Shown here piece after piece: positions 848 to 44,272 of a DNA stretch of 64,000 nt. Position 1 is the stretch's first letter. Each line of letters starts with the position of its first letter. Origin of the DNA: Escherichia phage vB_EcoM_ESCO8; sequence record OM386653.1; one strand, given 5' to 3'. Under the pieces are notes generated by a model that saw nothing but the letters and a program-made list of their open reading frames with translations, did not search any database and had not been told where the DNA came from. Position numbers and translations under genes: made by a program.

Positions 848-1234
848 TTATTCAATATAAATCAAATTATCTTCACCAATGTAAGCATGCACCGATGGCA
901 TTAATTTAGCTGCATTTGTTAGGCGGTTGGCGGTGTTAGTAGTGTATATTTCAGGGCGATCCCAAAAGCCTACGCCGTGACCGTTACGGGTGAAATGTAA
1001 GTCATTCCCGATCTGGTTTGCTGTTGCGCCGTCGCTCATTGCCTCAGAGATAGCAGCATCATTGGCATCACAATAAGCCGCTACGTCATGAATGATCCGC
1101 TGATGGGCTTGATCTGAAAAATCATAATCGTCTAAGTTATCAATAAAATAGCCTTCATGATCCCTGGCTGATTCAGCAAAAATAAAGGCTTCTTTATAAC
1201 CGTTGATGATTTCAATAATGATTTCAGTTTTCAT
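848..1234 (-). CDS. hypothetical protein
   Basis: ORF track 128 aa; no domain recognised. Confidence 0.55.
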   Translation of the reverse strand: MKTEIIIEIINGYKEAFIFAESARDHEGYFIDNLDDYDFSDQAHQRIIHDVAAYCDANDAAISEAMSDGATANQIGNDLHFTRNGHGVGFWDRPEIYTTNTANRLTNAAKLMPSVHAYIGEDNLIYIE

Positions 1235-1464
1235 GCTGTACGCTCGACAATAATAATGGTTTGCGGGATCTCGTTTTCTACTACTAACAAGGCTTTTTTC
1301 TGTGTGATAGATATTTTAACACGTTGTAAAGTAGCGGTAAAATCTTTCATTTCATTATGCGCGGATTTAGTGCAATGCCAGATCTCAGGTTTACCTATTT
1401 GCAAGCCGCGTAAAAATTCTGTTTTACCTGTCTTATTCGTGATCATTTGATTCACCTTATCCAA
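1231..1464 (-). CDS. hypothetical protein
   Basis: ORF track 77 aa; start overlaps upstream stop (ATGA). Confidence 0.5.
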   Translation of the reverse strand: MDKVNQMITNKTGKTEFLRGLQIGKPEIWHCTKSAHNEMKDFTATLQRVKISITQKKALLVVENEIPQTIIIVERTA

Positions 1465-12487: not shown

Positions 12488-13615
12488 TTAAAACACGCTT
12501 GCCAAAGTTGCACCATTGGTGATAGTTGGTTCCAGAACAATACGGAAAGAATCTTCTGGATCATCACTAAACACAACGATTTTACCGCCTGTAATAAGAT
12601 CTGCTTTCATTTTTGTCGCATTCAATGGAATTCGAGCATCTCCTTCATCATCAAAAACCACGTAAGAGCTATTAGCAAGGGCTTCTTTAGAGTCTGCATC
12701 ACTTGGAGATGACAAGTACACGTCTAGTGTGCACGAGCCACCTAAAAAGATTGCAGGTGTGAAGTTATGCCAACTAGATACCCAGCTAACTTTCTGAAGT
12801 TTCCCATTAATAACAACGCTGCTGATATCCCACTTATTACCACCACCCAAAGAAACGCCCATCATAGAGATGCATTCTTTAAAGGATAAATCAGGGTAGA
12901 AATTAAGTTCTTCTACTATACCTTGGATCACATCAAAGGACAACTCTAAACTTACATCCCAAAGCCTTTGGAAATTATCAAAGTGTGCTTTGTTATCCAG
13001 GTTTTTATCTAAATAGTCAATCATAGTTTCTAGTGAGATTTTATCATAATTAAAATTATAAAACACACGACTAGGACGATTTAGAAAGAATTCAGAGATA
13101 AAGCCACTGTTTTTAGTTAGAATAAACAGTTTATTACCACTGCCAGTACCATCTAACAAAGTGAGAAGTGCTTCTTGATCTTGTTTCTTCTCATACACTT
13201 TATCAAACTCGTCAAAAATAATCACTGCTTTGTCGGTGATCTTGCTAATAAGTTCAATGAAATTAGCATCGCTGTAGGCTTGAGTAACCATAATAGTTGG
13301 AATACCTTCTTCTACAAGGTCACGACTAATGAGTTTGGCTAACATAGTTTTACCACTACCCTTAGTTCCTGTCAGAAGCAATCCTGTATTTTTACCTTGT
13401 GCACTCCGGCGATGGAATGTACGGATAACGTGATTTGCTCGTTTTTCTGTTTCACCATACAGAACATCCGGTACACCTGTCAGATTACCACGGCTTAAAA
13501 AATAATTGCCAAGGGGATCACGACTAACAGTATAGAATCCAGGTGGAAGATAGTTAGATTCCACGCCCATATCTTTATTTACACTTACAATATCACCATA
13601 AATCGTGTATTTCAT
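12488..13615 (-). CDS. AAA-type ATPase (paralog A)
   Basis: 375 aa; Walker A GTKGSGKT, Walker B IIFDEFDK; paralogous to 28181..29341. Confidence 0.7.
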   Translation of the reverse strand: MKYTIYGDIVSVNKDMGVESNYLPPGFYTVSRDPLGNYFLSRGNLTGVPDVLYGETEKRANHVIRTFHRRSAQGKNTGLLLTGTKGSGKTMLAKLISRDLVEEGIPTIMVTQAYSDANFIELISKITDKAVIIFDEFDKVYEKKQDQEALLTLLDGTGSGNKLFILTKNSGFISEFFLNRPSRVFYNFNYDKISLETMIDYLDKNLDNKAHFDNFQRLWDVSLELSFDVIQGIVEELNFYPDLSFKECISMMGVSLGGGNKWDISSVVINGKLQKVSWVSSWHNFTPAIFLGGSCTLDVYLSSPSDADSKEALANSSYVVFDDEGDARIPLNATKMKADLITGGKIVVFSDDPEDSFRIVLEPTITNGATLASVF

Positions 13616-28180: not shown

Positions 28181-29341
28181 ATGTTTACAGTATTCGGCAA
28201 TCAAATCTTCCTGCGTCAGAAGTCTGGTACAGATATTGAAGAAATTCCAGCAGGAACTTTTGGTGTAGGTGTTACTCAAAGTGGCGAGTTCTTCCTGTAT
28301 CCTAAAAACGATATGGAAGTCCCTTCAGTAACATACGGTGATACTGATGATAAATCAGAACGTATTATCAAGACGTTCCTTAGCCGCAAAGGTAAAAACA
28401 CAGGTGTTCTCCTTGAGGGTACGAAGGGTAGCGGTAAAACTTTGCAAGCTAAAATGCTGTCTTCTGCTCTTCGTGAAATGGGTATTCCTACTATTTCTAT
28501 CGGTAGTGCTTTTAATGGTGAAGGCTTTATCAATTTTATGTCTAAAATCACACAACCTGTGATGATTATGATCGATGAATTTGATAAACTGTATGCTGAA
28601 AAAGATGCACAGGATGGTTTGCTTACCCTGCTGGATGGTGTTGGTGGCTATGACAAGCTGTTTGTATTGACTAAAAATGATGGTTATGTATCAGAATTTT
28701 TGCGTAATCGCCCTAGCCGTATTTTCTACAGCTTTAACTATAAGAAACTACCTAAAGCTACTATGGATGATTATCTGGCTAAAAATCTGGAGAACAAAGC
28801 CTTTTTACCAGATTTTGAAACGCTTTATAATCTGTCCGTGGACTTGAACTTTGATATTGTTCAGTCATTAGTAGAAGAACTTAACCGTTACCCTAATGAC
28901 AAATTCTCTGATGCACTTGCATTAATGGGTATCAGTATTACTGAACACCGCTATGCTGCAAAAGAAGTTAAACTTCTGAAAGTTAACGGTGTAGATCGTA
29001 CAGGAGATGTTTCGGCAGATACCGATATTGACGGTATGACAGCACAGGGTTTGTTTAGCGGTAATCGTTATGTTGTAGCTGTAGACCATAAGCTAGGAGA
29101 AGAGCATCTTCCTGAAATGGAAGGAGTCGTTACCGTAGAAGATAAAGACGAAGAAGGTGACTACTACTGGGGTGTAGACCGTATCTTGCTGACGTATGAT
29201 GAAAAACACATCCGTACAATGGGCGGTGACGGTTATCACTTTATGTTCACCGATGATAAAGGTAACAACATTGAAGTTGTTATTAAAAACAAAGAACGTA
29301 AAAACTACACAGAGTATGTGTTTGGTGGTCGTTCTTACTAA
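28181..29341 (+). CDS. AAA-type ATPase (paralog B)
   Basis: 386 aa; GTKGSGKT, IMIDEFDK, RPSRIFYSFNY; N-terminal ~250 aa similar to 12488..13615. Confidence 0.7.
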   Translation: MFTVFGNQIFLRQKSGTDIEEIPAGTFGVGVTQSGEFFLYPKNDMEVPSVTYGDTDDKSERIIKTFLSRKGKNTGVLLEGTKGSGKTLQAKMLSSALREMGIPTISIGSAFNGEGFINFMSKITQPVMIMIDEFDKLYAEKDAQDGLLTLLDGVGGYDKLFVLTKNDGYVSEFLRNRPSRIFYSFNYKKLPKATMDDYLAKNLENKAFLPDFETLYNLSVDLNFDIVQSLVEELNRYPNDKFSDALALMGISITEHRYAAKEVKLLKVNGVDRTGDVSADTDIDGMTAQGLFSGNRYVVAVDHKLGEEHLPEMEGVVTVEDKDEEGDYYWGVDRILLTYDEKHIRTMGGDGYHFMFTDDKGNNIEVVIKNKERKNYTEYVFGGRSY

Positions 29342-29590: not shown

Positions 29591-29746
29591 ATGCTTACAG
29601 ATGATGAATATAAAGCTATCCAAGAAAAACTAACGGAACTTGAAATTCTTGCTGTCAATATTAAAGATCAATCACATGCTGGAAAGTTACTACATCAAGA
29701 GATCAATAAAATTAAGCAGATGATATTCTTTTGGACGGAGGATTAA
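29591..29746 (+). CDS. hypothetical small protein (51 aa)
   Basis: Manually read ORF MLTDDEYKAIQEKLTELEILAVNIKDQSHAGKLL...; RBS AAAGGGGAAG. Confidence 0.35.
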   Translation: MLTDDEYKAIQEKLTELEILAVNIKDQSHAGKLLHQEINKIKQMIFFWTED

Positions 29747-29748
29747 AA

Positions 29749-30405
29749 ATGACTGTTAAGCATATTTCTTTTGATGTATGGAATACTCTTATTACTGCTA
29801 ATCCTTTGTATGCAGAAGAACGCAACAAGGTTATTGCCGAGTATGCCTCTTGTTCTGAGGTAGAAGCAGCTACCGTATATAAAGAGGTAAAAACTCTCCT
29901 GGATTTAAAAGCAGAAAAAGGCATTTGTGGAACATCTAGAAATGCTTGGGAAACACTTTCTGCTCGTTTGAACATTGATCTTGATAAAGTAGATGGGTTA
30001 AAAAGAGACTGTTTAGCAATGTTTATAAAACATCCTCCAACATTAAACCCTGAACTTTGCAAGAAGTTGGAAGAGCTAAGTTCAACCTATTCTTTGAGTA
30101 TTAAAAGCAATACTAATTTTGTACCTGGTAGTTTTTTAGCTGTATATTCTGGCTTGACAAAATTACCATTCGACTTTATGCATTTTTCTGACGAGTTTTG
30201 CTTGTGTAAACCAGATCCTAGGTTTTTTAAACTCTCTTTTGATGAAATGGTAACGTTTGATCTCGCACCAGAGGAGATCTTACACGTTGGAGATAGTTTG
30301 ATCTATGATGGAAAAGCTGTTGACATAGGGATGAAGTTCTGTCATATTATTAATCCAGAAGACTTGTTGGCTAAACTTAAAAAAGAGGAACTTATTAATG
30401 CGTAA
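29749..30405 (+). CDS. HAD-superfamily hydrolase (phosphatase-like)
   Basis: Motif I FDVWNTL near N-terminus, motif IV VGDSLIYDGK near C-terminus; 8-nt overlap with next gene. Confidence 0.55.
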   Translation: MTVKHISFDVWNTLITANPLYAEERNKVIAEYASCSEVEAATVYKEVKTLLDLKAEKGICGTSRNAWETLSARLNIDLDKVDGLKRDCLAMFIKHPPTLNPELCKKLEELSSTYSLSIKSNTNFVPGSFLAVYSGLTKLPFDFMHFSDEFCLCKPDPRFFKLSFDEMVTFDLAPEEILHVGDSLIYDGKAVDIGMKFCHIINPEDLLAKLKKEELINA

Positions 30406-31255
30406 TCAAATTCAACATTTTGCTAATACTTTTACTAACCTGAAGGAAGCAAAATTTAACATTGCAGATTATTCCAAGCTAAAGTTTGGTAGTAACCAGG
30501 CAGCAAAAAGAATGGGGCGCATTCTGGCTGAAAGTTTCTTTTCCAAGTATGAAGAACGACTGGTAAATGAAAGTTTTGTTGTTATTCCATCTCCATATAA
30601 CTATGTGAAAAATGCAGCTACAGTGTTATCTGAACATTTTGTAGATCACCTCAACTACCTAATCTCTATCAAAGGAGGTAAAGCAGTGGAGTGGGATATC
30701 GTTCATCGTAAAGTGAGCTATATCAATGATTATGGATTTCTTAGCAAAGAAGATCGTAAGGCTTTGATCGATGGTGACACTTTCTCTATCAATCGTGATT
30801 TCTGGGGTAATAAAACTCTGATTTTCATTGATGATGTTAATATTACAGGAACGCACGAAGAAAAACTTATTGAAATTTTAGACAAAGAAGGTGTTGAAAA
30901 CGATACGTTTTTCCTGTACTTTGCAAAGTATGAAGGTACAGAAGCCAATACCGAAGCTGCACTTAACTTCAACTATATCAATAACCTGGCAGCTTTTATT
31001 AAAATGATTAAACAAGAAACTGATGCTAAATGTTTGGTTCGTCCTATTAAGTATCTAATGAGTCAAAGCGAAGTTGATTTTAAAATTGCACTTTCACAGC
31101 TTCCTTTGTATTATGTAGAACAACTGTTCTTTGGTTGCCTTGCAGAAGGCTACAATAACATTGAAAAATATAAAGAGAACTTTGATTTCCTACGTCAATT
31201 TTTTGAAAGCAACATTATCAACAAATCTAATGTTAAAGGGGATTATTATGTCTAA
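30398..31255 (+). CDS. Phosphoribosyltransferase-like protein (divergent type I PRTase)
   Basis: 285 aa; LIFIDDVNITGTHEE resembles PRPP-binding loop of type I PRTases; translationally coupled to HAD and macro genes. Confidence 0.45.
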   Translation: MRNQIQHFANTFTNLKEAKFNIADYSKLKFGSNQAAKRMGRILAESFFSKYEERLVNESFVVIPSPYNYVKNAATVLSEHFVDHLNYLISIKGGKAVEWDIVHRKVSYINDYGFLSKEDRKALIDGDTFSINRDFWGNKTLIFIDDVNITGTHEEKLIEILDKEGVENDTFFLYFAKYEGTEANTEAALNFNYINNLAAFIKMIKQETDAKCLVRPIKYLMSQSEVDFKIALSQLPLYYVEQLFFGCLAEGYNNIEKYKENFDFLRQFFESNIINKSNVKGDYYV

Positions 31256-31964
31256 TAAAGTAATGACTTTCGGAGATCCTATCACCAATATTACAGAAAA
31301 AGATTTTGGGCGTGTAGCAACAGATAAAGATGGTGTCTTAAGAATTCGTGTACAAGGTATTACAGCACAGGATGAATATGCTGTGTATGTTTCAGGTCTT
31401 AACTATATTGATGATCGCATTACACAAAACTTTGCACTGATCGGTGGTGTAGAGAAAATGTATTGGGAAGATGAAATTGTAACAAGTTATCCGGCAGGTA
31501 TCATTGAGGTATACGGTGATCTTTTAGCAGCAGCCGAGAGAGGCGATATAGACGCTATAGCACACTGCTGTAACTGTTTTTGCACTATGGGTAGTGGTAT
31601 TGCACCAAAAATTAAAAGCAAGTGGCCTGGTGCGTTTAAAGCAGATTGTGCCACTAAACATGGTGATTATAAAAAATTAGGTACGTTTACCAAATATATA
31701 GAAAACAATTTGACAATTTATAATTTATATGGACAATATGGTTATAGTCGTCGTGAGGAAGGTAAGCGTGACCTGAATTATGAAGCTATCTACAATGCGT
31801 TAGATAGTATGGGAGACGATGTTGTATCTTCAGGCGGTAAAATTGTAGGTTTACCAATGCTTGGTTGTGGTTTGGCTGGAGGTTCTTGGAGTATTGTAAA
31901 ACTTATGATCGAAGAAACTCTAGTAAACAAAGGTTTAAATGTAATTGTTTACAAACTGAAATAA
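31248..31964 (+). CDS. Macro-domain protein with unknown N-terminal domain
   Basis: ATG preceded by AAAGGGG; C-terminal half has macro-like IDAIAHCCNCFCTMGSGIA and LPMLGCGLAGGS motifs; ORF-track start 31131 rejected. Confidence 0.55.
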   Translation: MSNKVMTFGDPITNITEKDFGRVATDKDGVLRIRVQGITAQDEYAVYVSGLNYIDDRITQNFALIGGVEKMYWEDEIVTSYPAGIIEVYGDLLAAAERGDIDAIAHCCNCFCTMGSGIAPKIKSKWPGAFKADCATKHGDYKKLGTFTKYIENNLTIYNLYGQYGYSRREEGKRDLNYEAIYNALDSMGDDVVSSGGKIVGLPMLGCGLAGGSWSIVKLMIEETLVNKGLNVIVYKLK

Positions 31965-31973
31965 GGAGAAAGT

Positions 31974-32180
31974 ATGGCAGGTGTTTTAGCAGTATTAGGT
32001 TGTTTTATTGTTGTGTTTTTGATTGTGTTAATCCCTAGTTGGCTACTGCTTTTAGCATACAACTATATGATTGACATTATCGGCTTAGACTGGCATCATG
32101 TTCCTGTAACGTTTTGGAGTGTAGTCTGTGTGACGTTCATTCTTGCGGTACTTCGTGGTATCTTTCAATCTAACAAATAA
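31974..32180 (+). CDS. hypothetical small membrane protein
   Basis: ORF track 68 aa; two TM helices. Confidence 0.45.
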   Translation: MAGVLAVLGCFIVVFLIVLIPSWLLLLAYNYMIDIIGLDWHHVPVTFWSVVCVTFILAVLRGIFQSNK

Positions 32181-32194
32181 GAGAGGATTTTTAT

Positions 32195-32443
32195 ATGCGT
32201 AAAGTAAATGTTGAAGTGCTTGAAAAATTTAGAAACACTCGTGATTGTACTATCGGCAAGGTTTACGAGGCTATTCTCCTTGAAGATGGAGATCAAGTTC
32301 CTGCCCCGTATCACGCCTTTAATGGTCAAATCAGCAAAGTGGAAGGTGGTCTTGCTATTTGCTTTATTGATGACGTAGGTGATGCTGTAGCTTTCCCTGT
32401 CATTAACAAAGAAGATAAACTTAAAATTACAGAACTGAACTAG
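32195..32443 (+). CDS. hypothetical protein
   Basis: ORF track 82 aa. Confidence 0.5.
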   Translation: MRKVNVEVLEKFRNTRDCTIGKVYEAILLEDGDQVPAPYHAFNGQISKVEGGLAICFIDDVGDAVAFPVINKEDKLKITELN

Positions 32444-32471
32444 TTGACTTTCTTTAAAAACAGTTTATAGT
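32444..32471 (+). promoter_or_regulatory. sigma70-like promoter with leader hairpin ahead of TerC gene
   Basis: TTGACT-16nt-TATAGT followed by CATAGAG and hairpin GCGGAGGA-ttgt-CCTCCGC (32484-32502), same architecture as early-array promoters. Confidence 0.5.
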
Positions 32472-32520
32472 ATAAGACATAGAGCGGAGGATTGTCCTCC
32501 GCATTAAAGAGGAGAAAAGA

Positions 32521-33498
32521 ATGCAACTGGGTTTCCCAATTATTGATGTGGTTGTTTTAGTGGGTATTTTAGTCTTGTCGATTTGTATTGACTTCTTTGG
32601 ACACAGAGAAAACAAAGAAATTTCATTTAAATCTGCAATTGGCTGGTCAATTTTCTGGATTGGGGTATCATTAGCCTACTATGGTTTTGTATACTTCCAA
32701 CACGGTGCTGATTTTGCGAGCTTGTTCTTGAGTGGGTATGTGTTGGAGAAATCTCTTTCTGTAGATAACTTAGTAGTATTTGTAGCAGTATTCGCAAGTT
32801 TTGGTATTAAAAGCACACACTTGCAGCACAAGATTCTACTTTGGGGTATTGCAGGTGCGATTGTCTTCCGAGGTGTGTTTGTAGCAGTAGGTACTTACTT
32901 GTTGAGTTTGGGCTGGTATGTTAATATCTTCTTCGGTGCTGTCATCCTTTTCTGTGCGGCTAAAATGGTATTCGCTGGAGATAATGATGCAGAAGTTGAT
33001 TACTCTAAACACTGGGCTACTCGCATTGTTCGTAAGCTGTTCCCTGTATCTGATCAGATGGATGGTGAGAAGTTCTTCACAATCAAAAATGGTGTTCGTG
33101 TAGCAACTCCGGCTCTGGTTTGTGTGTTTGTAATGGAAATGGTTGACGTAATCTTTGCAGTAGACTCTGTTCCAGCAGTAATTGCAGTGACACAAGAACC
33201 TCTGCTGGTGTTCTCTTCGATGCTCTGTGCAATCTTAGGTTTACGTGCTCTGTTCTTTGTTCTTAGTGTTGCACTGAAGTATTTGGTTCATCTGGAGAAA
33301 GCAGTTATCGTAGTCCTGGTGTTTGTGGGTGTAAAACTGATGTATCACCCGTTTGCAGAAACTCTGCACGCAAAAGTGAGTTTCCTGCCAGCACACATTG
33401 ACCCGACGATCAGTATGTATATTGTGTTAGGTACTCTTGGGCTGGGTGTTCTTGCAAGTTTAATCTTCCCTGAAAAAGAAGACCAGGCTGTTGCTTAA
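32521..33498 (+). CDS. TerC-family integral membrane protein
   Basis: 325 aa, multi-TM; conserved EKSLSVDNLVVF and DVIFAVDSVPAV motifs. Confidence 0.75.
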   Translation: MQLGFPIIDVVVLVGILVLSICIDFFGHRENKEISFKSAIGWSIFWIGVSLAYYGFVYFQHGADFASLFLSGYVLEKSLSVDNLVVFVAVFASFGIKSTHLQHKILLWGIAGAIVFRGVFVAVGTYLLSLGWYVNIFFGAVILFCAAKMVFAGDNDAEVDYSKHWATRIVRKLFPVSDQMDGEKFFTIKNGVRVATPALVCVFVMEMVDVIFAVDSVPAVIAVTQEPLLVFSSMLCAILGLRALFFVLSVALKYLVHLEKAVIVVLVFVGVKLMYHPFAETLHAKVSFLPAHIDPTISMYIVLGTLGLGVLASLIFPEKEDQAVA

Positions 33499-33504
33499 TT
33501 CATT

Positions 33505-33528
33505 AAGCCCCTTCGGGGGCTTTATTGA
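33505..33528 (+). terminator. Rho-independent terminator
   Basis: AAGCCCC-ttcg-GGGGCTT followed by TATTGA. Confidence 0.55.
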
Positions 33529-33537
33529 GGTGATCTG

Positions 33538-33744
33538 ATGGTGGTTTTACGTGTTCTTTGGATTCTGTTTGAAAATATTTGTTTTGCTCTAGGTTTGTTT
33601 TGTTTGATTTTTATCTTGACAACATATATTGATAACCATACAATTACTATCAACAGGAACGGAGAACAGATGTATTGTTTCTCTAGGGATTTTAAAAATT
33701 GTGTTGAGATTTTAAATGAGAGGGTTACAAATGAAAAACATTAA
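33538..33744 (+). CDS. hypothetical small membrane protein
   Basis: ORF track 68 aa. Confidence 0.35.
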   Translation: MVVLRVLWILFENICFALGLFCLIFILTTYIDNHTITINRNGEQMYCFSRDFKNCVEILNERVTNEKH

Positions 33745-34321
33745 ATCTTTTATTGTTGCAGTTGTTTTAGGTAGTGCATTGCTGGTAGGTTGTGATGATT
33801 CTGAAAATGTACAAAATCAACGTTACCAACAAACACCAAATCAGATGGTAGATGAACAATATGTAAATCAGCCTGCACCTCAAGTTGTTCAAGCAGCACC
33901 TGCACAACCTTCAACAGTTGTTGTGCAAGGAGGCGGCAGTGGTTCTTCTGGCGTAGGTGAGTTTGCTACAGGTATGCTTCTTGGTCATATGTTGAGTGGT
34001 AATAGTGGCGGTGGTGGTTATAGAGATGGCGGTAGCAATACAACAATTATCAATAACAACGCTGCTCCTACAACTAATAGTAAAGCATATACAACACAAA
34101 AGCATAGGTTTTATGATAAACAAGGGAATACATATACAACCACTAAACAAAACACAATTAAGCAGCAAAGTGTACAAACGTATTCACGCCCATCAACAAC
34201 AAAAGTGAATAGTGATTACTCTGCTCGTAAGTCTTACTCAAGTCCTATTAGCTCTTATAGTAAGTCTTCGAAAAGTTATTCTTCGTCGAAACGTAGTTTT
34301 AGTAGCTCACGTCGTCGTTAA
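33731..34321 (+). CDS. Putative lipoprotein with Ser/Tyr-rich low-complexity tail
   Basis: Start MKNIKSFIVAVVLGSALLVGC (lipobox LVGC) after GAGAGGG RBS; G-rich and S/Y/K-rich C-terminus. Confidence 0.5.
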   Translation: MKNIKSFIVAVVLGSALLVGCDDSENVQNQRYQQTPNQMVDEQYVNQPAPQVVQAAPAQPSTVVVQGGGSGSSGVGEFATGMLLGHMLSGNSGGGGYRDGGSNTTIINNNAAPTTNSKAYTTQKHRFYDKQGNTYTTTKQNTIKQQSVQTYSRPSTTKVNSDYSARKSYSSPISSYSKSSKSYSSSKRSFSSSRRR

Positions 34322-34356
34322 TAATTTAATACAGATTAAATAAGAAGGAGAAACAG

Positions 34357-35208
34357 ATGAAACTAGAAGTTGGTAAAGTGTATCGCCTGGAAGGTTGGAT
34401 CTTTAATCAAGAAATTCTTGAGAAGAATAAAGATGGTTTTGAGTTTGTTGGTACTACCAAGGAAAGTATGCACAATGACGAATACTGTAAATTCGTTGGT
34501 AAAAATACAGGTCAAGAACAATTTTGCTTTAAGAGCGCAATCGGTGATTATGCTTCTGTAATGCCAACACCAGAAAAGACTTCGAAGCAATATACTGTCT
34601 TTGGTGTAAAACTTGAAGAACTTGTAGAACACCCACGTTTTGAAGAGTTCAAGGTTGCTGCAATGCGCAAGCATTCTGAAATTAAAATACATAATTTGTT
34701 TGATTTAGAAGATCGGTTTGATATCTTTATGTATGATCGCAGGGAAAAGCATTTTGATGCAACGACTTCAAAATTTGCTGCAACAGAGGATATTAAAATC
34801 CTTGATGTTGATACCTTTCTTGAGAGTGTATCGTTTGTATTCATTCCTAAATACAAAAAACGTAGTGATCATAAACGTGTGAAAGGAACTCCTCGTAAAA
34901 AACGTACTGTAAACAAAGCAACTTTGCACTTCACTTCTGGTGATAAATATACTCTCAAAGGGTTTGAAAGTGTTTTGTATGATGCTGGAACGGGTAATAT
35001 CAAGTTTATCATTAAGGCAACCTACAAAGGTACGGTATTGCACGAAGAGGCTGTTACACTACCTGTATTCGATATCTCTCGTGTTGAGGTACGGGGTGTT
35101 AAAGAGTCCTTCGATCTGGATTTCTTAACTGCTAATACCACGGGTTATGTTAATCTGGAAGCAGATGGAGCATTTATTACTACAAATTATTTAGATATGT
35201 TTGTTTAA
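34357..35208 (+). CDS. hypothetical protein
   Basis: ORF track 283 aa. Confidence 0.55.
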   Translation: MKLEVGKVYRLEGWIFNQEILEKNKDGFEFVGTTKESMHNDEYCKFVGKNTGQEQFCFKSAIGDYASVMPTPEKTSKQYTVFGVKLEELVEHPRFEEFKVAAMRKHSEIKIHNLFDLEDRFDIFMYDRREKHFDATTSKFAATEDIKILDVDTFLESVSFVFIPKYKKRSDHKRVKGTPRKKRTVNKATLHFTSGDKYTLKGFESVLYDAGTGNIKFIIKATYKGTVLHEEAVTLPVFDISRVEVRGVKESFDLDFLTANTTGYVNLEADGAFITTNYLDMFV

Positions 35209-35276
35209 TACTTAACTTGTGTTATGATGGTGGTATAGAAGTATCACCATCTACTAAAGAATATGGAGGAAATTGA

Positions 35277-36380
35277 ATGTCCAGTCCTTTTATCAGTGCC
35301 GTAAAAAGCAAACCGTCTGAAATGAGTGTATTCACGGCAACAACAGAAAAAAGTAAGTCTTTGTTTGCTCCAACTGCTATGGATGCAAGTCCTGTATATG
35401 CCCCTGCTGTTGCACGACCTGTACAAATGCTGCCTCCAATGTCTCGTGAAGAGATTGAACAGGTTGGTGCTGATGCAGGACTTACTCTTCGTAACCTTAA
35501 TGCTGAAGTGCTTAAACACCAGCGTTCATCTCAGGGAGATGAAATGAGTGAACGTTTAACTGCGCTTATTAAGCAAGCAAAGCAACTTGATCCTAACTCT
35601 ATTAAACAATCTAAAGGTTTAGGTAAACTAGTTAAGAAAGTTTTAGGTATGAAAGAAGATTTGTTTGGAGAATTTGACACCATCAATAACCGTATTGAAG
35701 GTTTGGTAAAGACACTCCAAACAGACTTGAAAAAAGAAGAAGATTCTTTACGATATCTGCAACGTTTAGAAGAGGCTATTGCAAAATATGCCCTTAGTTT
35801 AAACAGGGATATAGAGCTTCTAACAGCTACTTATGAAAAAGAAGAAATTCGCCTTAATACACTGCCTGAAAATGAGGTAGAAGAGCGTCAACGTACTCGT
35901 GATACTATGGATCTGCTTGAAATTCGTATTGCAGACCTGAAAGCCTTACGCTTACTATGTGTTCAGATGGGGCCACGTGTACAAAGTATGCAGAAAGTAT
36001 CTGCAAGTTTGATGCGATCAGCCCGTAATATTGTGAATAATGTTATCCCTGCTTACTCTGCAAACTTTTCTATGCATATTGAAAGTCTACGCCAGAAGAA
36101 AGCAGCCGATACACAGAACAATGTACTAAATGAATTTAATGCTGCTATTGCAATGGGTAGTGATTTGGCTGCACAAAACCAAATTGAAGCTACACAACTT
36201 GCTAATCGTCAAGTATTGGATATTGAAACATTACGTCGTGATCAAGAAAACTTGGTTAAAATGTTGGAAGAAACTAACCGAATCAACACTGAAGCCCGTG
36301 CTGCTCGTATTGATTACATTCAAGAAGTGCAATCTCTTGAAGATGGTATGATTCAAACTGTTAAACGTGGTCTACTTTAA
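35277..36380 (+). CDS. TelA-like (toxic anion resistance family) protein, tentative
   Basis: 367 aa, predominantly coiled-coil, size and context (between TerC and TerD/vWA) fit TelA/KlaA family; not confirmed by motif. Confidence 0.4.
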   Translation: MSSPFISAVKSKPSEMSVFTATTEKSKSLFAPTAMDASPVYAPAVARPVQMLPPMSREEIEQVGADAGLTLRNLNAEVLKHQRSSQGDEMSERLTALIKQAKQLDPNSIKQSKGLGKLVKKVLGMKEDLFGEFDTINNRIEGLVKTLQTDLKKEEDSLRYLQRLEEAIAKYALSLNRDIELLTATYEKEEIRLNTLPENEVEERQRTRDTMDLLEIRIADLKALRLLCVQMGPRVQSMQKVSASLMRSARNIVNNVIPAYSANFSMHIESLRQKKAADTQNNVLNEFNAAIAMGSDLAAQNQIEATQLANRQVLDIETLRRDQENLVKMLEETNRINTEARAARIDYIQEVQSLEDGMIQTVKRGLL

Positions 36381-36393
36381 GGAGAAATATATT

Positions 36394-36600
36394 ATGAATA
36401 TTAAAATTTACAAACTGTCTGGTTCTATGATTGCTGTTCAGTATGATAATGAAGATCGTTATGTTCTCCTCCAGGATGCTTGGTTAGATGATCCTAATGT
36501 ATTCACTGTCCTGCGAGAACTACGTTCTGTCTATACCTATTCTTCTAAAGATGGTTTTGACAATTCAACGATGGAATTGGTAAAAGAGGAGAATGTGTAA
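36394..36600 (+). CDS. hypothetical protein
   Basis: ORF track frame trimmed to ATG after GGAG RBS. Confidence 0.45.
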   Translation: MNIKIYKLSGSMIAVQYDNEDRYVLLQDAWLDDPNVFTVLRELRSVYTYSSKDGFDNSTMELVKEENV

Positions 36601-36800
36601 TGAGTAAAGATATTCACTTAACTCGTGAAGAATTGCAAACCATTATGGAAGATGCTTTCATTGATGGTTGGAAACAAGGTCAAGAATCAGATTGGTATGA
36701 TGCCGAAGATTTTTTGTATTATCATATGACTGCACCTGTAGACGAGCAAACACACTCTGAAACAACTTTGGCTTTAATTGATCTTAAGGCTGGTGTATAA
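36600..36800 (+). CDS. hypothetical protein sharing motif with C-terminus of next gene
   Basis: 66 aa; LTREELQTIMEDAFIDGWKQG matches ISLNELQKITREAFYLGWKVG in 36800..37363. Confidence 0.45.
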   Translation: MSKDIHLTREELQTIMEDAFIDGWKQGQESDWYDAEDFLYYHMTAPVDEQTHSETTLALIDLKAGV

Positions 36801-37363
36801 TGGGGTGTTTTAGTTTCTTGTGCAAAGAGTCTGGTAATGCTGCTCTTTCTACCTCTTTTGATGGCTCTCCTTGCTACCTATTTCTTTTGAAAGGTGGTAA
36901 GGTTGTCGAAGAGATGTATGGGAATTATGATAGCTATGGTAGTGTTTTCTCTAACGAAGAAGATAAACATGGCAATCGTAAAAGATTTAAGTGGTCTATG
37001 CCTTGGGAAGAAGTTTGTAATTTGATGTTCTCTTCCGATCTTGGAGATGGGATTGCTCTGGTATTAGAAGAGCACTTTACAGGTGAGATCCCAACAGAAA
37101 GATCTGAAGAAGATCCTAACCAGGGTTGGGGTGATGGAGAAGAAGATCCAGATTGCTTCTTCAACACTGAAAATAATAAATTTAAACGTGTTGACAATCC
37201 TTACCACAAAGTGCATAATACTTGCATTGAGACAGAAGAAGACTCAAAGCTAGAAATTGAAGATGATTTAGTTGTAACTATCTCTTTAAACGAGTTGCAA
37301 AAAATCACTAGAGAGGCTTTCTATTTAGGTTGGAAAGTAGGTAAAGGAGGAGATAGTGCTTAA
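36800..37363 (+). CDS. hypothetical protein
   Basis: ORF track 187 aa. Confidence 0.5.
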   Translation: MGCFSFLCKESGNAALSTSFDGSPCYLFLLKGGKVVEEMYGNYDSYGSVFSNEEDKHGNRKRFKWSMPWEEVCNLMFSSDLGDGIALVLEEHFTGEIPTERSEEDPNQGWGDGEEDPDCFFNTENNKFKRVDNPYHKVHNTCIETEEDSKLEIEDDLVVTISLNELQKITREAFYLGWKVGKGGDSA

Positions 37364-37625
37364 ATTTAATATCAAAGACGACAAATCAGATGAACCTAAA
37401 TGTTTTGGAGAACTTGACGTAGGTGATACATTTGTATATTATGTTGCCTATCAAGATTCTGGTTTAGATACGTTCAGAAACTTAGTGTTTATTAAAGTTA
37501 ATACAAACCAAGCAATGTGTCTGAACGGTTCGCAAAGAGGTCAACTTAGCTGTATTTCGTATGATACAGAAATGGTAGAAGTGGATTTAGAAGTTACTAA
37601 CATTACACTCAGAAAGGAGAAATAA
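37356..37625 (+). CDS. hypothetical protein
   Basis: ORF track 89 aa; GTG start. Confidence 0.4.
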   Translation: MLKFNIKDDKSDEPKCFGELDVGDTFVYYVAYQDSGLDTFRNLVFIKVNTNQAMCLNGSQRGQLSCISYDTEMVEVDLEVTNITLRKEK

Positions 37626-37626
37626 T

Positions 37627-38421
37627 ATGTCCAATAAAATCAGTCTTAAAAAACGTCAAGAAACTCTTACCGTATCTCTGCGTAAGAAAAAGATTAACGA
37701 TGTTGTTCTTCGTGTCGGTAGCGCCTTAGATATTTCGGGTAGTATGTGTGAGCTGTATCGTGATGGCACTGTTAGTGATTTTGTAGGTAAGCTACTGCCG
37801 TTTGGTATGAAGTTTGATGATAATGCACAGATTGACATGTGGGCTTTCAATAGTTCTTCTTTTGAACTGCCTCCTGCAACGGCTGATGTATATGATGATT
37901 ATGTCGGCTCTTGTATGTCTAATGTTTGCATCAATGGTGGTACAGCTTATGCTCCAGTAATGCAAGAGATCTATGATACATACTTCGGTAGTGTACCTAT
38001 GAAAAATATTACACGCGAAGTCGTTGAGTATGAAGAAGTTCCGGCTAAGGGTTTCCTTGCTAAACTAACTGGTAAAAAAGAACGTGTAGAAGTTACACGT
38101 ACTGTTGTAGAACAGGTTGTAGATACTGATGCACAAGTTGATCGTACTCCTGCAATGATTTTCTTCCAAACTGACGGGGAGAACATGGATACTTCAGCAG
38201 TACGTAGTTTGCTGAACAAACACCGCAACACTCCTGTTTACTGGTTTATGGTTGGTGTAGGTAATGCAAACTTTAAATTCCTGAAAGACTTGGCAAAAGA
38301 ATACGATAACGTTGATTTTATCGGTATTGCAGATTTGTCCTTGTCTGACGAAGAACTTTACGATAAACTGCTATCCGAAGAGTTTGGCGAGTGGGTTAAA
38401 AAATTTGGAGCAAAAGCGTAA
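37627..38421 (+). CDS. von Willebrand factor A (vWA) domain protein (TerY-like)
   Basis: 264 aa; MIDAS motif LDISGSM near N-terminus, later FFQTDGEN; adjacent to TerD. Confidence 0.6.
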   Translation: MSNKISLKKRQETLTVSLRKKKINDVVLRVGSALDISGSMCELYRDGTVSDFVGKLLPFGMKFDDNAQIDMWAFNSSSFELPPATADVYDDYVGSCMSNVCINGGTAYAPVMQEIYDTYFGSVPMKNITREVVEYEEVPAKGFLAKLTGKKERVEVTRTVVEQVVDTDAQVDRTPAMIFFQTDGENMDTSAVRSLLNKHRNTPVYWFMVGVGNANFKFLKDLAKEYDNVDFIGIADLSLSDEELYDKLLSEEFGEWVKKFGAKA

Positions 38422-38493
38422 AAAACGCTTGACTTTGTAGAAAAGATTAGTAAAATAGACAACGTAAATTAACAACAAAGGAGATAATAAATT

Positions 38494-39090
38494 ATGACTC
38501 AGAAAATTTCCCTGAAAAAAGGTTCTAGCGAAAAAGTTTCTCTGAAAAAGATTGCACCAGCACTGAAACGCATTCGTCTGGAATTCTCTTGGAAATCTAA
38601 CGAAAAACTGGATCTGGATGTTAGTGCTCTGATTTGCCGACACAATGCATCTGGTCTGCCGGAACTGTTGTCTCCTCGCCACCTGGTATGCTACGCACAG
38701 AAATTTGATCCTGAACGTTCTACTTTTGCAGGTGAAGATGTTCGTGACGGTGTAGGACAAATGGAGCAGATTGATGTTACACTGGATAATATCTCTGCTG
38801 AAGCACAGGAAATTGCATTCGTAATCACTATTGATGACGAAACGGGTAAGAAACGCCTTGGTCACGCTACCGAAGGTTTCCTTAAAATCTTCGATGATGA
38901 ACGTAACGTTGAACTGCTGGATTTTGACTTCTTGGCTCCAGAACTTGCAGGTAATACCATTTGCCACGTTGCCTCCCTGGTGCGGGAAGATAGCGAATGG
39001 AAACTGAAAGCATATGGTGTAGGTAAAGCTGGACTTGACATTTATGATGTAGTTAAAGCGTTTGGCGCTGGCGACGATTGGTTCGAGTAA
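38494..39090 (+). CDS. TerD-family protein
   Basis: 198 aa; ISLKKGSSEKVSLKK, DLDVSAL, ITIDD, EWKLKAYGVG pattern matches TerD/TerE/TerZ family as recalled. Confidence 0.75.
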   Translation: MTQKISLKKGSSEKVSLKKIAPALKRIRLEFSWKSNEKLDLDVSALICRHNASGLPELLSPRHLVCYAQKFDPERSTFAGEDVRDGVGQMEQIDVTLDNISAEAQEIAFVITIDDETGKKRLGHATEGFLKIFDDERNVELLDFDFLAPELAGNTICHVASLVREDSEWKLKAYGVGKAGLDIYDVVKAFGAGDDWFE

Positions 39091-39099
39091 TAAATCATA

Positions 39100-39124
39100 G
39101 CGCCCTTCGGGGCGCATATTTTAA
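39100..39124 (+). terminator. Rho-independent terminator
   Basis: GCGCCC-ttcg-GGGCGC followed by ATATTTT. Confidence 0.6.
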
Positions 39125-39142
39125 ATAGAAGAGGAGAAAACA

Positions 39143-39745
39143 ATGGGTATTACTTTAGAAGGTCAAAAACTTATTCGCAGCGGTAATTTTCTTGTGGATA
39201 TTGACAACAATGAAGATTATGCTTTAGAAGTTAGTGATGTACTGTTTAATGCTTTGCAGTCTGGTTTCAATTTTGAAGTTTATGAAGTAATCCGTGGAAC
39301 TAAACTCAGAGAAACCCTTGGATCAACTAGTGATGTTTATTCTGCGATCTGGCAATATTTCGGGTTAATGGATGGTAAGACATACCTTACTGATAGTTAT
39401 TCTGAAGATGTTGTTTATCTTGATATGGAAGAGTTTCGTCGTCTGTTCAAAAGTGAAGAAAATGAAGAAGAGGGTGAACTTTTTGAAGGAATTACTCTCG
39501 AAGGTAATGTTGAAATTGTGTATAAAGCAGGAAAAACATTCCACTTGCGTGAAAACGGTAAAGCAAAAGTTGATTTTGTAAACAAGACAGTAACAACTGA
39601 ACATAATTATCTTAAAGATGGTCAACCAGCTTTTGAACGTGTAACAATTAAATTTAAAGTATTGTCTGCACTAGTTACGGATCAAGAACGTATTGATTTT
39701 GTAGAAGATGGTGTAGTAACTCATACAAAGGTTTACAACATCTAA
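39143..39745 (+). CDS. hypothetical protein
   Basis: ORF track 200 aa. Confidence 0.55.
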   Translation: MGITLEGQKLIRSGNFLVDIDNNEDYALEVSDVLFNALQSGFNFEVYEVIRGTKLRETLGSTSDVYSAIWQYFGLMDGKTYLTDSYSEDVVYLDMEEFRRLFKSEENEEEGELFEGITLEGNVEIVYKAGKTFHLRENGKAKVDFVNKTVTTEHNYLKDGQPAFERVTIKFKVLSALVTDQERIDFVEDGVVTHTKVYNI

Positions 39746-39777
39746 CAGGGTGTAAGAGGGGGATAATCCCCCTCCAC

Positions 39778-39806
39778 TTGCAAAACAGCCTCTTCTGTGT
39801 TACAAT
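39778..39806 (+). promoter_or_regulatory. sigma70-like promoter
   Basis: TTGCAA-17nt-TACAAT; preceded by hairpin GAGGGGG-ataat-CCCCCTC (39759-39777). Confidence 0.45.
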
Positions 39807-43327: not shown

Positions 43328-44272
43328 ATGCCTAATATTATTCTTGACACACGCGGAAATGAAAAGTATAGTGTATGTGATTTTCATAGAATCATTTTGC
43401 CATATAAACGCAAACTGACCATTAATCCTAAGCATAATATTTTTGTGTTCAATGGTGTACCAACACGTGGAAAGCCAGGTTTCCTGGCTCTTAAACAACT
43501 TGGGTTTAAATTGGTAATGGATCTGGATGATTCTTTAATTATTCCTGAAGGACATATGCTTGAAGGACTATTTGAAAATCAAATCCGAGATGACCTAAAA
43601 TGGTTTCTTGAAAGAAGCGATCTTGTAACTACAACAACTCCGGCATTAAAGGTTGAATTAAGCCAATACAATGATAATGTACATATTGTGCCTAACGGAC
43701 TACCTTTTGATGAAGGACAGTTTGTTCTTACTAAAGATCGTTATTCTAAAAGTCCACTGGTTTGGGCGGGAAGTGAAACCCATAAACATGATTTAGCAAT
43801 TCTTCCTGATTTTGGTAAAGATTTAACTTTATGTGGATTTCGTAGAGATCACGAAGAGTTAAGTAGTGCTCAATGGTTGCAAATTAAAGAAGATATTCAA
43901 CCAGATTGTGTTTATGAAGGTATTCGTCCTTATGAGTGTTATATGGAAGCATACGATGGTCATCAAATCTCCATAGCTCCATTAGTAAATAATCATTTTA
44001 ATAATGCCAAAAGTAATTTAAAAATTCTTGAAGCTGGTGCTAAAGGTTTGCCACTCGTTTGTTCGCCACGAGAGAACTATTATACTGAAGAATTTAAAGA
44101 TCTAATCTTCTTTGCTGATTCAGTTAAAGAGTGGAAAGATATTGTAGAATACTTAATCGAATCTCCTGATGTTTGTATTGAGAAAGGATTGGCTCTTGCT
44201 AAGTATGTAAGAGATAACTACAATATTGATGATTTAAATGAAACCCGCAGACTGCTTATCGAGGATTTATAA
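43328..44272 (+). CDS. Putative glycosyltransferase (GT-B-like), paralog 2
   Basis: 314 aa; shares GQF.LTKDR, ISIAPLV.N.FNN.KSNLKILEAGAKGLP blocks with 42342..43316. Confidence 0.5.
   Translation: MPNIILDTRGNEKYSVCDFHRIILPYKRKLTINPKHNIFVFNGVPTRGKPGFLALKQLGFKLVMDLDDSLIIPEGHMLEGLFENQIRDDLKWFLERSDLVTTTTPALKVELSQYNDNVHIVPNGLPFDEGQFVLTKDRYSKSPLVWAGSETHKHDLAILPDFGKDLTLCGFRRDHEELSSAQWLQIKEDIQPDCVYEGIRPYECYMEAYDGHQISIAPLVNNHFNNAKSNLKILEAGAKGLPLVCSPRENYYTEEFKDLIFFADSVKEWKDIVEYLIESPDVCIEKGLALAKYVRDNYNIDDLNETRRLLIEDL

Follow-up and report, generated by a model that had tools for sequence, protein, structure and literature searches.

Two adjacent genes in the Ter-like gene cluster of Escherichia phage vB_EcoM_ESCO8, which we call ORF A and ORF B, encode proteins that share a short segment (~27 amino acids) whose similarity is above chance. 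The interpretation that we favor, and to which we give about an even chance of being correct, is that ORF B of the Stephanstirmvirinae is a chimera in which a core and a linker are followed by a partial copy of ORF A helix 1 that acts as a docking element. The window analysed here is a stretch of 64,000 nucleotides from this phage (sequence record OM386653.1), and all positions refer to it.

Gene arrangement and the Ter-like cluster

Over positions 35200-39800 the window matches Escherichia phage outra (MN850645; Stephanstirmvirinae, Justusliebigvirus) with 100% identity, and phi92 and many relatives with about 98%. The genes and signals discussed here are the following (strand is given as + where it was recorded):

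29731..30405: HAD hydrolase
30398..31255: ComF-like PRTase (PRTase_3)
31131..31964: Macro domain
32521..33498: TerC
35277..36380, + strand: TelA-family gene (Pfam PF05816, E 5.7e-34)
36394..36600, + strand: upstream 68-aa ORF (phi92 gp177; phrog_26823), whose stop overlaps the ORF A start
36600..36800, + strand: ORF A, 66 aa (= phi92 gp176; phrog_14200)
36800..37363, + strand: ORF B, 187 aa (phi92 gp175; phrog_14928)
37345..37349 and 37356..37358, + strand: AGGAG ribosome binding site and GTG start of the 89-aa gene, within the last ORF B codons
37356..37625, + strand: downstream 89-aa ORF (phi92 gp174; phrog_11278), whose start overlaps the ORF B end
37627..38421, + strand: vWA-TerF-like gene (Pfam PF10138, E 7e-39)
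38494..39090, + strand: TerD gene (Pfam PF02342, E 5e-28)

The window does contain a genuine Ter-like cluster, and a fairly complete one. Abbreviated Ter operons of virulent phages contain TerC, TelA, a TerF-type vWA protein and TerD, with or without a PRTase and a HAD protein (Iyer et al. 2021, PMC7824862; phiKp34, PMC8386662), and a role in superinfection exclusion or stress tolerance has been proposed for them (PMC7824862; PMC8386662). The window cluster likewise has TerC, TelA, vWA-TerF, TerD, HAD and PRTase_3 genes, and it has a Macro domain gene as well; ORF A and ORF B, which are placed between the TelA and vWA-TerF-like genes, differ from these in matching no Ter family profile. A lipoprotein-like ORF is also present among the cluster neighbours.

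ORF A and ORF B are "hypothetical" in all annotations, and our literature search found no paper that describes either one. Neither has a match in Pfam, NCBIfam or PADLOC, so neither belongs to a Ter family by sequence. Both match PHROGs families over their full lengths, ORF A phrog_14200 (E 8.8e-39, with residues 1-65 aligned to positions 7-70 of the 73 in the profile) and ORF B phrog_14928 (E 2e-123). PHROGs lists these two families separately, without function, and treats them as unrelated; the helix described below links them at the profile-profile level only.

The 68-aa ORF, ORF A, ORF B and the 89-aa ORF form a run of four genes whose successive stops and starts overlap (TAATG, TAATG and GTGCTTAA), an arrangement from which we infer that they are translationally coupled and hence made together. 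The ribosome binding site inside the 3' end of ORF B is noted in the phi92 annotation of gp174 as "rbs motif: AGGAG". Promoter- and terminator-like sites are no more frequent here than background and the two shared coding segments are no notable DNA repeat, and we therefore rejected a role for the repeat at the DNA or RNA level.

The two proteins and their families

ORF A is an acidic protein (pI 4.2) that is predicted by AF2 to be a three-helix bundle (mean pLDDT 85) with helices at residues 9-27, 35-44 and 54-64. The shared segment is helix 1 of this predicted bundle, and conservation in the ORF A family alignment is highest there. The family is tiny: its profile yields just nine matches in a search of 1.84 billion cluster representatives, and one of the nine, the 2264-aa protein P0133 with its 17 stretches, was rejected as spurious, as these are a low-complexity fibre repeat ("TNDAFIGGTLSA"). 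With so few matches, the idea of a broader superfamily around ORF A was dropped. In outra, ZCKP1 and Hena1 the ORF A domain makes up a protein by itself. It also occurs as the C-terminal part of fusions, following a ~70-aa domain in phAPEC8 gp060 and a homologue of the 68-aa upstream ORF in Klebsiella phage KP2025. The N-terminal fusion domains of the last two are unrelated to one another; the ORF A domain is thus modular.

ORF B has three parts, which are listed here with the two copies of the shared segment:

36800..37222, + strand: ORF B core, residues 1-141, a beta-rich conserved phage domain (MGCFSFLCK...GNYDSYG...DPNQGWG...PYHKV)
37223..37273, + strand: ORF B acidic linker, residues 142-158, AF2 pLDDT below 50, predicted to be disordered
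36612..36692, + strand: motif copy 1, ORF A residues 5-31, helix 1 of the predicted bundle (helix proper 36624..36680)
37274..37354, + strand: motif copy 2, ORF B residues 159-185, predicted C-terminal amphipathic helix (helix proper 37286..37324)

The core (residues 1-141, AF2 pLDDT about 90) has neither a Pfam model nor a match to a solved fold. Its family is represented by 294 matches with 45-65% identity, and ORF B carries the invariant columns of this family (G2, C3, F4, S5, C8, GNYDSYG, DPNQGWG and P134-x-H136). Most members are 120-149 amino acids long and end directly after PYHKV; the others include at least seven unrelated types of C-terminal extension. The extension that bears the motif occurs in five of the 120 listed representatives, all of them phi92- or phAPEC8-like, and no copy of the motif was found in the other 115. 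A profile of this extension searched against 5.8 billion proteins returned just two fragments of ORF B itself. The acidic linker plus helix is present only in the Stephanstirmvirinae clade, where phages with the ORF B extension always encode the ORF A domain immediately upstream. In the AF2 model the extension has a single helix (residues 163-175, pLDDT 63-71) that is followed by GKGGDSA, and the chain ends 12 residues past it.

The sequence-only reading had taken the similarity to mark a duplicated small domain, and this does not hold: according to the models, the ORF A domain needs helices 1-3 and ORF B holds a counterpart of helix 1 only. As the extension is confined to those five phi92- or phAPEC8-like representatives, the shared unit is a single helix and a lineage-specific addition in ORF B. 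We also asked whether the 89-aa ORF might supply, in another frame, the missing remainder of an ORF A-like domain; compared by eye, it has "F.YY" alone in common with ORF A, with the wrong spacing and at positions that are not conserved in the ORF A family, and this idea was rejected.

Association with Ter genes holds in the Stephanstirmvirinae and in KP2025, and it is not conserved across lineages for either family. In Erwinia phage Hena1 the ORF A homologue is between Sir2 and DNA ligase genes without Ter neighbours, and the distant ORF A members at metagenomic loci L010-L014 adjoin a DNA methyltransferase fragment or lie a few genes from a DUF2201 gene, again without Ter genes. The ORF B core at loci L006-L009 adjoins DNA polymerase, kinase, phosphatase or unannotated genes, with no Ter neighbours. 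The proposal that the shared motif is a component of the Ter module is contradicted by these non-Ter contexts of both families (Hena1 and L006-L014) and by the 115 of 120 ORF B representatives that are free of the motif. Rather than recognised Ter components, the two ORFs are passengers or additions particular to their lineage. The link to TerD or vWA proteins that was suggested at first is speculative and is based on gene position.

A shared segment above chance

The two strings first noticed are found exactly where they were reported, LTREELQTIMEDAFIDGWKQG at ORF A residues 7-27 (nucleotides 36618..36680) and ISLNELQKITREAFYLGWKVG at ORF B residues 161-181 (37280..37342), in the C-terminal part of the protein. 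The pattern L..EL..I...AF..GWK.G that was drawn from them is present, but its "GWK" is polymorphic: the residue at ORF B position 178 is W or L within the genus (GLK in phi92, in the context GLKVG) and F in Phapecoctavirus (GFK).

Pairwise and profile alignment, shuffled controls and structure prediction of both proteins had been proposed as checks on the similarity, which is beyond the shuffled controls. BLASTP aligns ORF A residues 5-31 with ORF B residues 159-185 without gaps (11 of 27 identical, 16 of 27 positive, 26.2 bits, pairwise E = 2e-5); a second BLASTP alignment, of ORF A 6-46 with ORF B 92-134, is not significant (E 0.17) and was discarded. The Smith-Waterman score of 56 is reached by none of 15,000 shuffled sequences (mean 26, sd 4.5). 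The corresponding Gumbel p of ~1e-4 would by itself be borderline, given the ~5,000 gene pairs that a reader could scan. In an all-versus-all comparison of the 116 window ORFs the pair ranks third (E 0.002), behind two true paralog pairs. When a profile of 13 ORF A-family domains is aligned by hhalign with one of seven ORF B C-terminal extensions, the score is 31.2 (E 4e-6, 29 columns). Column shuffles of the ORF B alignment give a mean of 9.6 and a maximum of 18.2, and 0 of 300 reach the observed score; among 300 column shuffles of the ORF A alignment one does so, a single unexplained outlier at 130.5. AF2 places a helix at the motif in both proteins (ORF A 9-27, ORF B 163-175), so that the segments appear to share a secondary-structure element as well.

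The similarity is also reciprocal and keeps one register across lineages, as a paralogous segment should. Among the 263 predicted proteins of the complete 145-kb outra genome, the ORF A and ORF B families are each other's best non-self matches, with profile scores of 31.6 against 21.6 for the next best in one direction and 27.8 against 20.2 in the other. ORF A members from outside phi92 aligned with phAPEC8-type ORF B extensions give an hhalign score of 26.0 (E 5e-5), and four combinations of lineage subsets that do not depend on phi92 score 25-27 with the register unchanged.

The chief alternative is that the two segments are ordinary amphipathic helices, each with a (T/S)xxE plus hydrophobic N-cap and a Gly-aromatic C-cap, that came to resemble one another by convergence or chance and without common descent; we consider this unlikely, though it is the most serious of the alternatives. 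Several observations count for it, most of them also against the chimera. The match is short (~27 residues), the (T/S)xxEL part of the pattern is a generic helix N-cap, and the ORF A domain profile finds ORF B only marginally with HMMER (11.3 bits, E 0.014 at genome scale), while HMMs of the motif alone, from either family, fail to cross-detect (E about 1). The pairwise similarity of the phAPEC8 pair is not significant by itself (p ~0.12). The DNA identity of the two coding segments is an unremarkable 59% over 81 nucleotides, and as a DNA repeat the pair does not rank with the top ones of the region; the same codon is used at nine of the 11 identical residues, but these look like simply the common codons of an AT-rich genome, codon usage being assumed here. 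Finally, LTxxELxxI is present in another type of ORF B extension, that of P0040, P0045 and P0046 ("DAFWLG", "LTDDELMVIY"). This last extension served as a negative control, however, and its hhalign scores against the motif (15.1 and 11.9) are at background, so we rejected a relationship; the LTxxELxxI-bearing sequence thus reaches 15 where the ORF A/ORF B pair reaches 31. Convergence is further opposed by the shuffle and real-protein controls, which put the pair well above background, and by the four lineage-independent comparisons with their one register. Nor would it lead one to expect that the best non-self match in a 263-gene genome should be the adjacent gene, in both directions, or that there should be no third copy anywhere in that genome; none was found with a combined motif HMM in the six-frame translation of the 145-kb genome and of all fetched loci. 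A duplication-type origin, as originally suggested, is the best reading of the similarity.

Selection on the ORF B extension

Values of dN/dS were calculated from 12 ORF B genes of GenBank phages (in IMG/VR two of nine loci carry the extension, which is too few). By segment they are:

ORF B core, residues 1-140: dN/dS 0.05-0.12
ORF B linker, residues 141-160: dN/dS 0.13-0.39
ORF B helix, residues 161-180: dN/dS 0.16-0.27
ORF B tail, residues 181-187: dN/dS above 1 (about 2 to 3.5) within Phapecoctavirus and between genera, with low dS

Within Justusliebigvirus the tail value is 0.16. Purifying selection acts on the ORF B helix, whose dN/dS is about 0.2. Since the helix value is low and the AGGAG and GTG of the next gene fall within the tail, selection keeps the helix as protein and constrains the tail for the translation signal that it carries. 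The hydrophobic face that is conserved in ORF B consists of L166, I169, A173, F/Y174, G177 and an aromatic residue or Leu at 178, and its counterparts in ORF A are L12, I15, A19, F20, G23 and W24.

These values bear on the possibility that the extension is a neutral remnant of recombination that persists only because the ribosome binding site and start of the downstream gene lie in its 3' end. The AGGAG and GTG of the 89-aa gene are indeed in the last seven ORF B codons, the same codons in which synonymous sites are constrained and dN/dS exceeds 1, and phage PD06 (below) has lost ORF B and kept exactly its last 93 nucleotides, untranslated. On the other hand, helix codons 161-180 are upstream of the ribosome binding site and still have dN/dS of 0.16-0.27, the hydrophobic face of the helix is kept across two genera, and the frame through linker and helix is open in every full-length ORF B copy examined. 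The selection on the helix makes a purely neutral remnant unlikely, and we think this explanation has little chance of being the right one.

Another reading gives the ORF B helix a different task. MinD and FtsA have C-terminal amphipathic helices that target them to the membrane, and the ORF B helix could similarly hold the core at the inner membrane, its likeness to ORF A being historical or coincidental. Like those helices it is terminal, behind a linker that is flexible in the AF2 model, with a high hydrophobic moment (0.53-0.61; 0.57 for the window copy) and a net positive charge (+1 to +2; +2 for the window copy). The FtsA helix is comparable (0.57, +3), and ORF A helix 1 has values of 0.18 and -3. 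Some neighbours are membrane-associated as well (TerC, TelA and the lipoprotein-like ORF); TerC and TelA are thought to act at the inner membrane. Unlike the MinD and FtsA helices, however, that of ORF B is less charged, has acidic surroundings and appears to be related to a helix that is predicted to be buried in a soluble bundle. The helix is only weakly positive and includes acidic residues; the net charge of -7 on segment 141-160 and the whole-protein pI of 4.5 disfavor binding to an anionic membrane; and the specific match to ORF A is left unexplained. Membrane targeting seems to us improbable, to about the same degree as a neutral remnant.

Natural rearrangements at the locus

Natural recombination between the ORF A and ORF B copies takes place in register. 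Each copy contains the same 9-mer:

36666..36674, + strand: GGTTGGAAA copy in ORF A (codons G23-W24-K25), the hybrid crossover site
37328..37336, + strand: GGTTGGAAA copy in ORF B (codons G177-W178-K179), the second identical 9-mer

The ORF A profile search uncovered a 33-aa A/B hybrid protein, MSKDIHLTREELQTIMEDAFIDGWKVGKGGDSA, on three metagenomic phi92-like contigs of 50-200 kb, with the junction MSKDIHLTREELQTIMEDAFIDGWK|VGKGGDSA. In the DNA alignment of hybrid locus L005 the sequence is that of ORF A through GGTTGGAAA and that of ORF B thereafter, an in-register crossover within the 9-mer by which 662 nucleotides are gone (ORF A residues 26-66 and ORF B residues 1-176). The remaining Ter cluster is intact on the hybrid contigs. 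A separate deletion, at a "TTTAGTT" microhomology, is found in phage PD06, where all of ORF B is removed except its last 93 nucleotides; this remnant is out of frame and untranslated, and it retains the downstream ribosome binding site and start. In some phAPEC8-like genomes ORF B is split by a frameshift (P0016, P0140 and P0141). The PD06 deletion, the hybrids and the frameshift splits together show that ORF B is dispensable for propagation in at least some settings. This dispensability in some relatives, and the aromatic position that is not fixed (W, L or F), also count against the chimera and its docking role.

Origin and possible role of the ORF B helix

If ORF B is a chimera, the following course of events may be proposed. 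A core of ~140 amino acids would have gained a C-terminal extension made up of an acidic disordered linker and one amphipathic helix, the latter a partial copy of helix 1 from the upstream ORF A. Either a partial duplication or an illegitimate recombination with the adjacent gene would have produced the copy, at a time when Justusliebigvirus and Phapecoctavirus had not yet split. The ORF A domain is wider in distribution (Hena1, KP2025 and metagenomic phages) than the ORF B extension, which occurs only beside an upstream ORF A; ORF A is therefore favored as the source, and copying probably went from ORF A to ORF B, as judged from these sequence distributions.

The tethered helix would then be a docking element in which the hydrophobic face of ORF A helix 1 is preserved. 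Because that face (L, I, A, F/Y, G, aromatic) is kept, the ORF B helix could bind the target of helix 1; it might bind ORF A helices 2-3 by helix exchange, or else a partner common to both proteins, and such docking would bring the ORF B core to a complex that ORF A joins. The earlier suggestion of an interaction or regulatory module can be carried only as far as a plausible interaction, to which the fusions of the ORF A domain and the purifying selection on the ORF B helix point. That the ORF B helix mimics ORF A helix 1, with ORF A as an adaptor that recruits, or is regulated by, the ORF B core, we regard as a doubtful proposition; an adaptor role would fit the joint translation of the four coupled genes and the readiness with which the ORF A domain forms fusions. 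It would follow, and is as doubtful, that the pair is a lineage-specific add-on to a phage Ter-like superinfection or stress module.

Tailed phages are mosaics in which neighbouring accessory genes undergo partial duplication and recombination at short homologies. The situation here resembles this in that adjacent genes share a short segment, extensions are lineage-restricted, and deletions and hybrids occur at homologies of 7-9 nucleotides; it is unlike usual mosaicism in that the copied piece is a single structural helix that is kept under selection in a new host protein. It falls within ordinary phage mosaicism, as one more case of a known type of event and not a new kind of system.

As such it is a small and clean illustration of accessory phage genes acquiring modules from adjacent genes, and of the in-register deletions that repeats of this sort then drive. 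It also gives a lead to the partners of two families without assigned function, one of which, the ORF B core, is widespread and strongly conserved; this core family is itself a more interesting by-product than the shared helix. Should the helix turn out to mediate binding, the two ORFs together would be the first handle on the role of the ORF B core, and would also reveal whether the two proteins modulate the phage Ter-like cluster.

The ORF B core family and its C-terminal extensions

The core of ORF B, the protein of 187 amino acids encoded immediately downstream of ORF A (a predicted three-helix bundle), belongs to a large and very strongly conserved family of phage proteins:

36800..37222, ORF B core (residues 1-141)

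All members of this family have MGCFSFLCK as their N-terminal start; G2, C3, F4, S5, C8 and H136 are invariant and C73 is nearly so, a pattern which suggests that Cys and His form a metal site or that the N-terminus is functional. The core has no model in Pfam, NCBIfam or PADLOC, and it finds no fold match in the PDB although its predicted model is confident. At least seven unrelated types of C-terminal extension are found in the family.

The ORF B 3'-end and deletions at ORF A/ORF B

Two features lie near the 3'-end of ORF B:

37191..37219, sigma-70-like site (TTGACA, 17 nt, CATAAT; 11/12 positions match)
37340..37363, last seven codons of ORF B, overlapping the AGGAG and GTG of the downstream 89-aa gene

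The sigma-70-like site is within ORF B, directly 5' of the acidic linker and C-terminal helix, and sites of this kind are as frequent in the region as in the shuffle background. In the last seven codons dN/dS is about 2 to 3.5, both inside Phapecoctavirus and in comparisons of the two genera, where synonymous divergence is low and non-synonymous divergence is high; within Justusliebigvirus it is 0.16, a value derived from very few differences. The low synonymous and high non-synonymous divergence points to this tail being constrained as nucleotide sequence rather than as protein.

Natural deletions have altered this region in two ways (coordinates are those of the comparison loci):

L005 4001..4102, ORF A/ORF B hybrid (ENA ERZ28621247 scaffold_133), compared with 36600..37363 of the window
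L001 2489..2593, ORF B remnant in phage PD06, in which the last 93 nt of ORF B are retained

The hybrid is an in-register protein of 33 amino acids, present in three metagenomic phi92-like contigs, in which the crossover falls within the common GGTTGGAAA and 662 nt are deleted. In PD06 the deletion that removed the rest of ORF B took place at a TTTAGTT microhomology. The piece left behind is no longer in frame and still provides the downstream gene with its ribosome-binding site and start.

Variants, fusions and neighbourhoods of ORF A

The ORF A domain is also found in fusions, and two distant members of its family lie a few genes 3' of a DUF2201 gene (vWA-like or metallopeptidase):

L004 3279..3692, ORF A-domain fusion in KP2025
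L002 2103..2501, ORF A-domain fusion, phAPEC8 gp060
L012 1040..2518 and L013 1956..3485, DUF2201 neighbourhoods of the ORF A family
36710..36715 (window), T6 run in ORF A

In KP2025 the fusion partner of the ORF A domain is homologous to the 68-aa ORF upstream of ORF A, a hint that these two proteins act together, while in phAPEC8 gp060 the domain is joined to a different N-terminal domain of about 70 amino acids. The DUF2201 context is another vWA-type neighbourhood of the family, the second, and a weak one. The database also has shortened ORF A variants, which may reflect either genuine frameshifts or errors of sequencing: one (P0008) ends in ...EDFCIII, the outcome expected from a one-base change in the T6 run, and the other (P0005) stops after residue 44 and is found on contigs of up to 146 kb.

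Other similarities within the window

Two clear paralog pairs are present in the window, and a weaker match ranks directly below the ORF A/ORF B pair:

12488..13615 (-) and 28181..29341 (+), AAA-type ATPase pair, 47% identity over 254 aa
42303..43316 and 43328..44272 (+), genes in tandem (41% over 324 aa), one of them with a match to a glycosyltransferase-like family
1231..1464 (-), 77-aa ORF, and 39143..39745 (+), 200-aa ORF (the next after TerD), 34% over 59 aa at a within-window E of 0.007

The Ter-like module and its surroundings

The module and the element that follows it are:

29731..39090, Ter-like module
39100..39115, GC-rich hairpin (GCGCCC-TTCG-GGGCGC), each strand having a T-rich tail

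The hairpin, directly 3' of TerD, looks like a bidirectional terminator. In the phAPEC8 stretch (L002) no gene is annotated as TerD at the place where phage outra has it. Two phAPEC8 genes, gp062 (L002 3057..3335) and gp065 (L002 4357..4626), were judged by eye to be look-alikes of the 89-aa ORF. The module in the window is fuller than TelA, vWA and TerD only, as a HAD hydrolase, a ComF-like PRTase_3, a Macro-domain protein and TerC all lie upstream. Full Ter systems have been described as including a nucleotide-derivative biosynthesis arm, and these upstream genes show that this phage likewise carries that arm.
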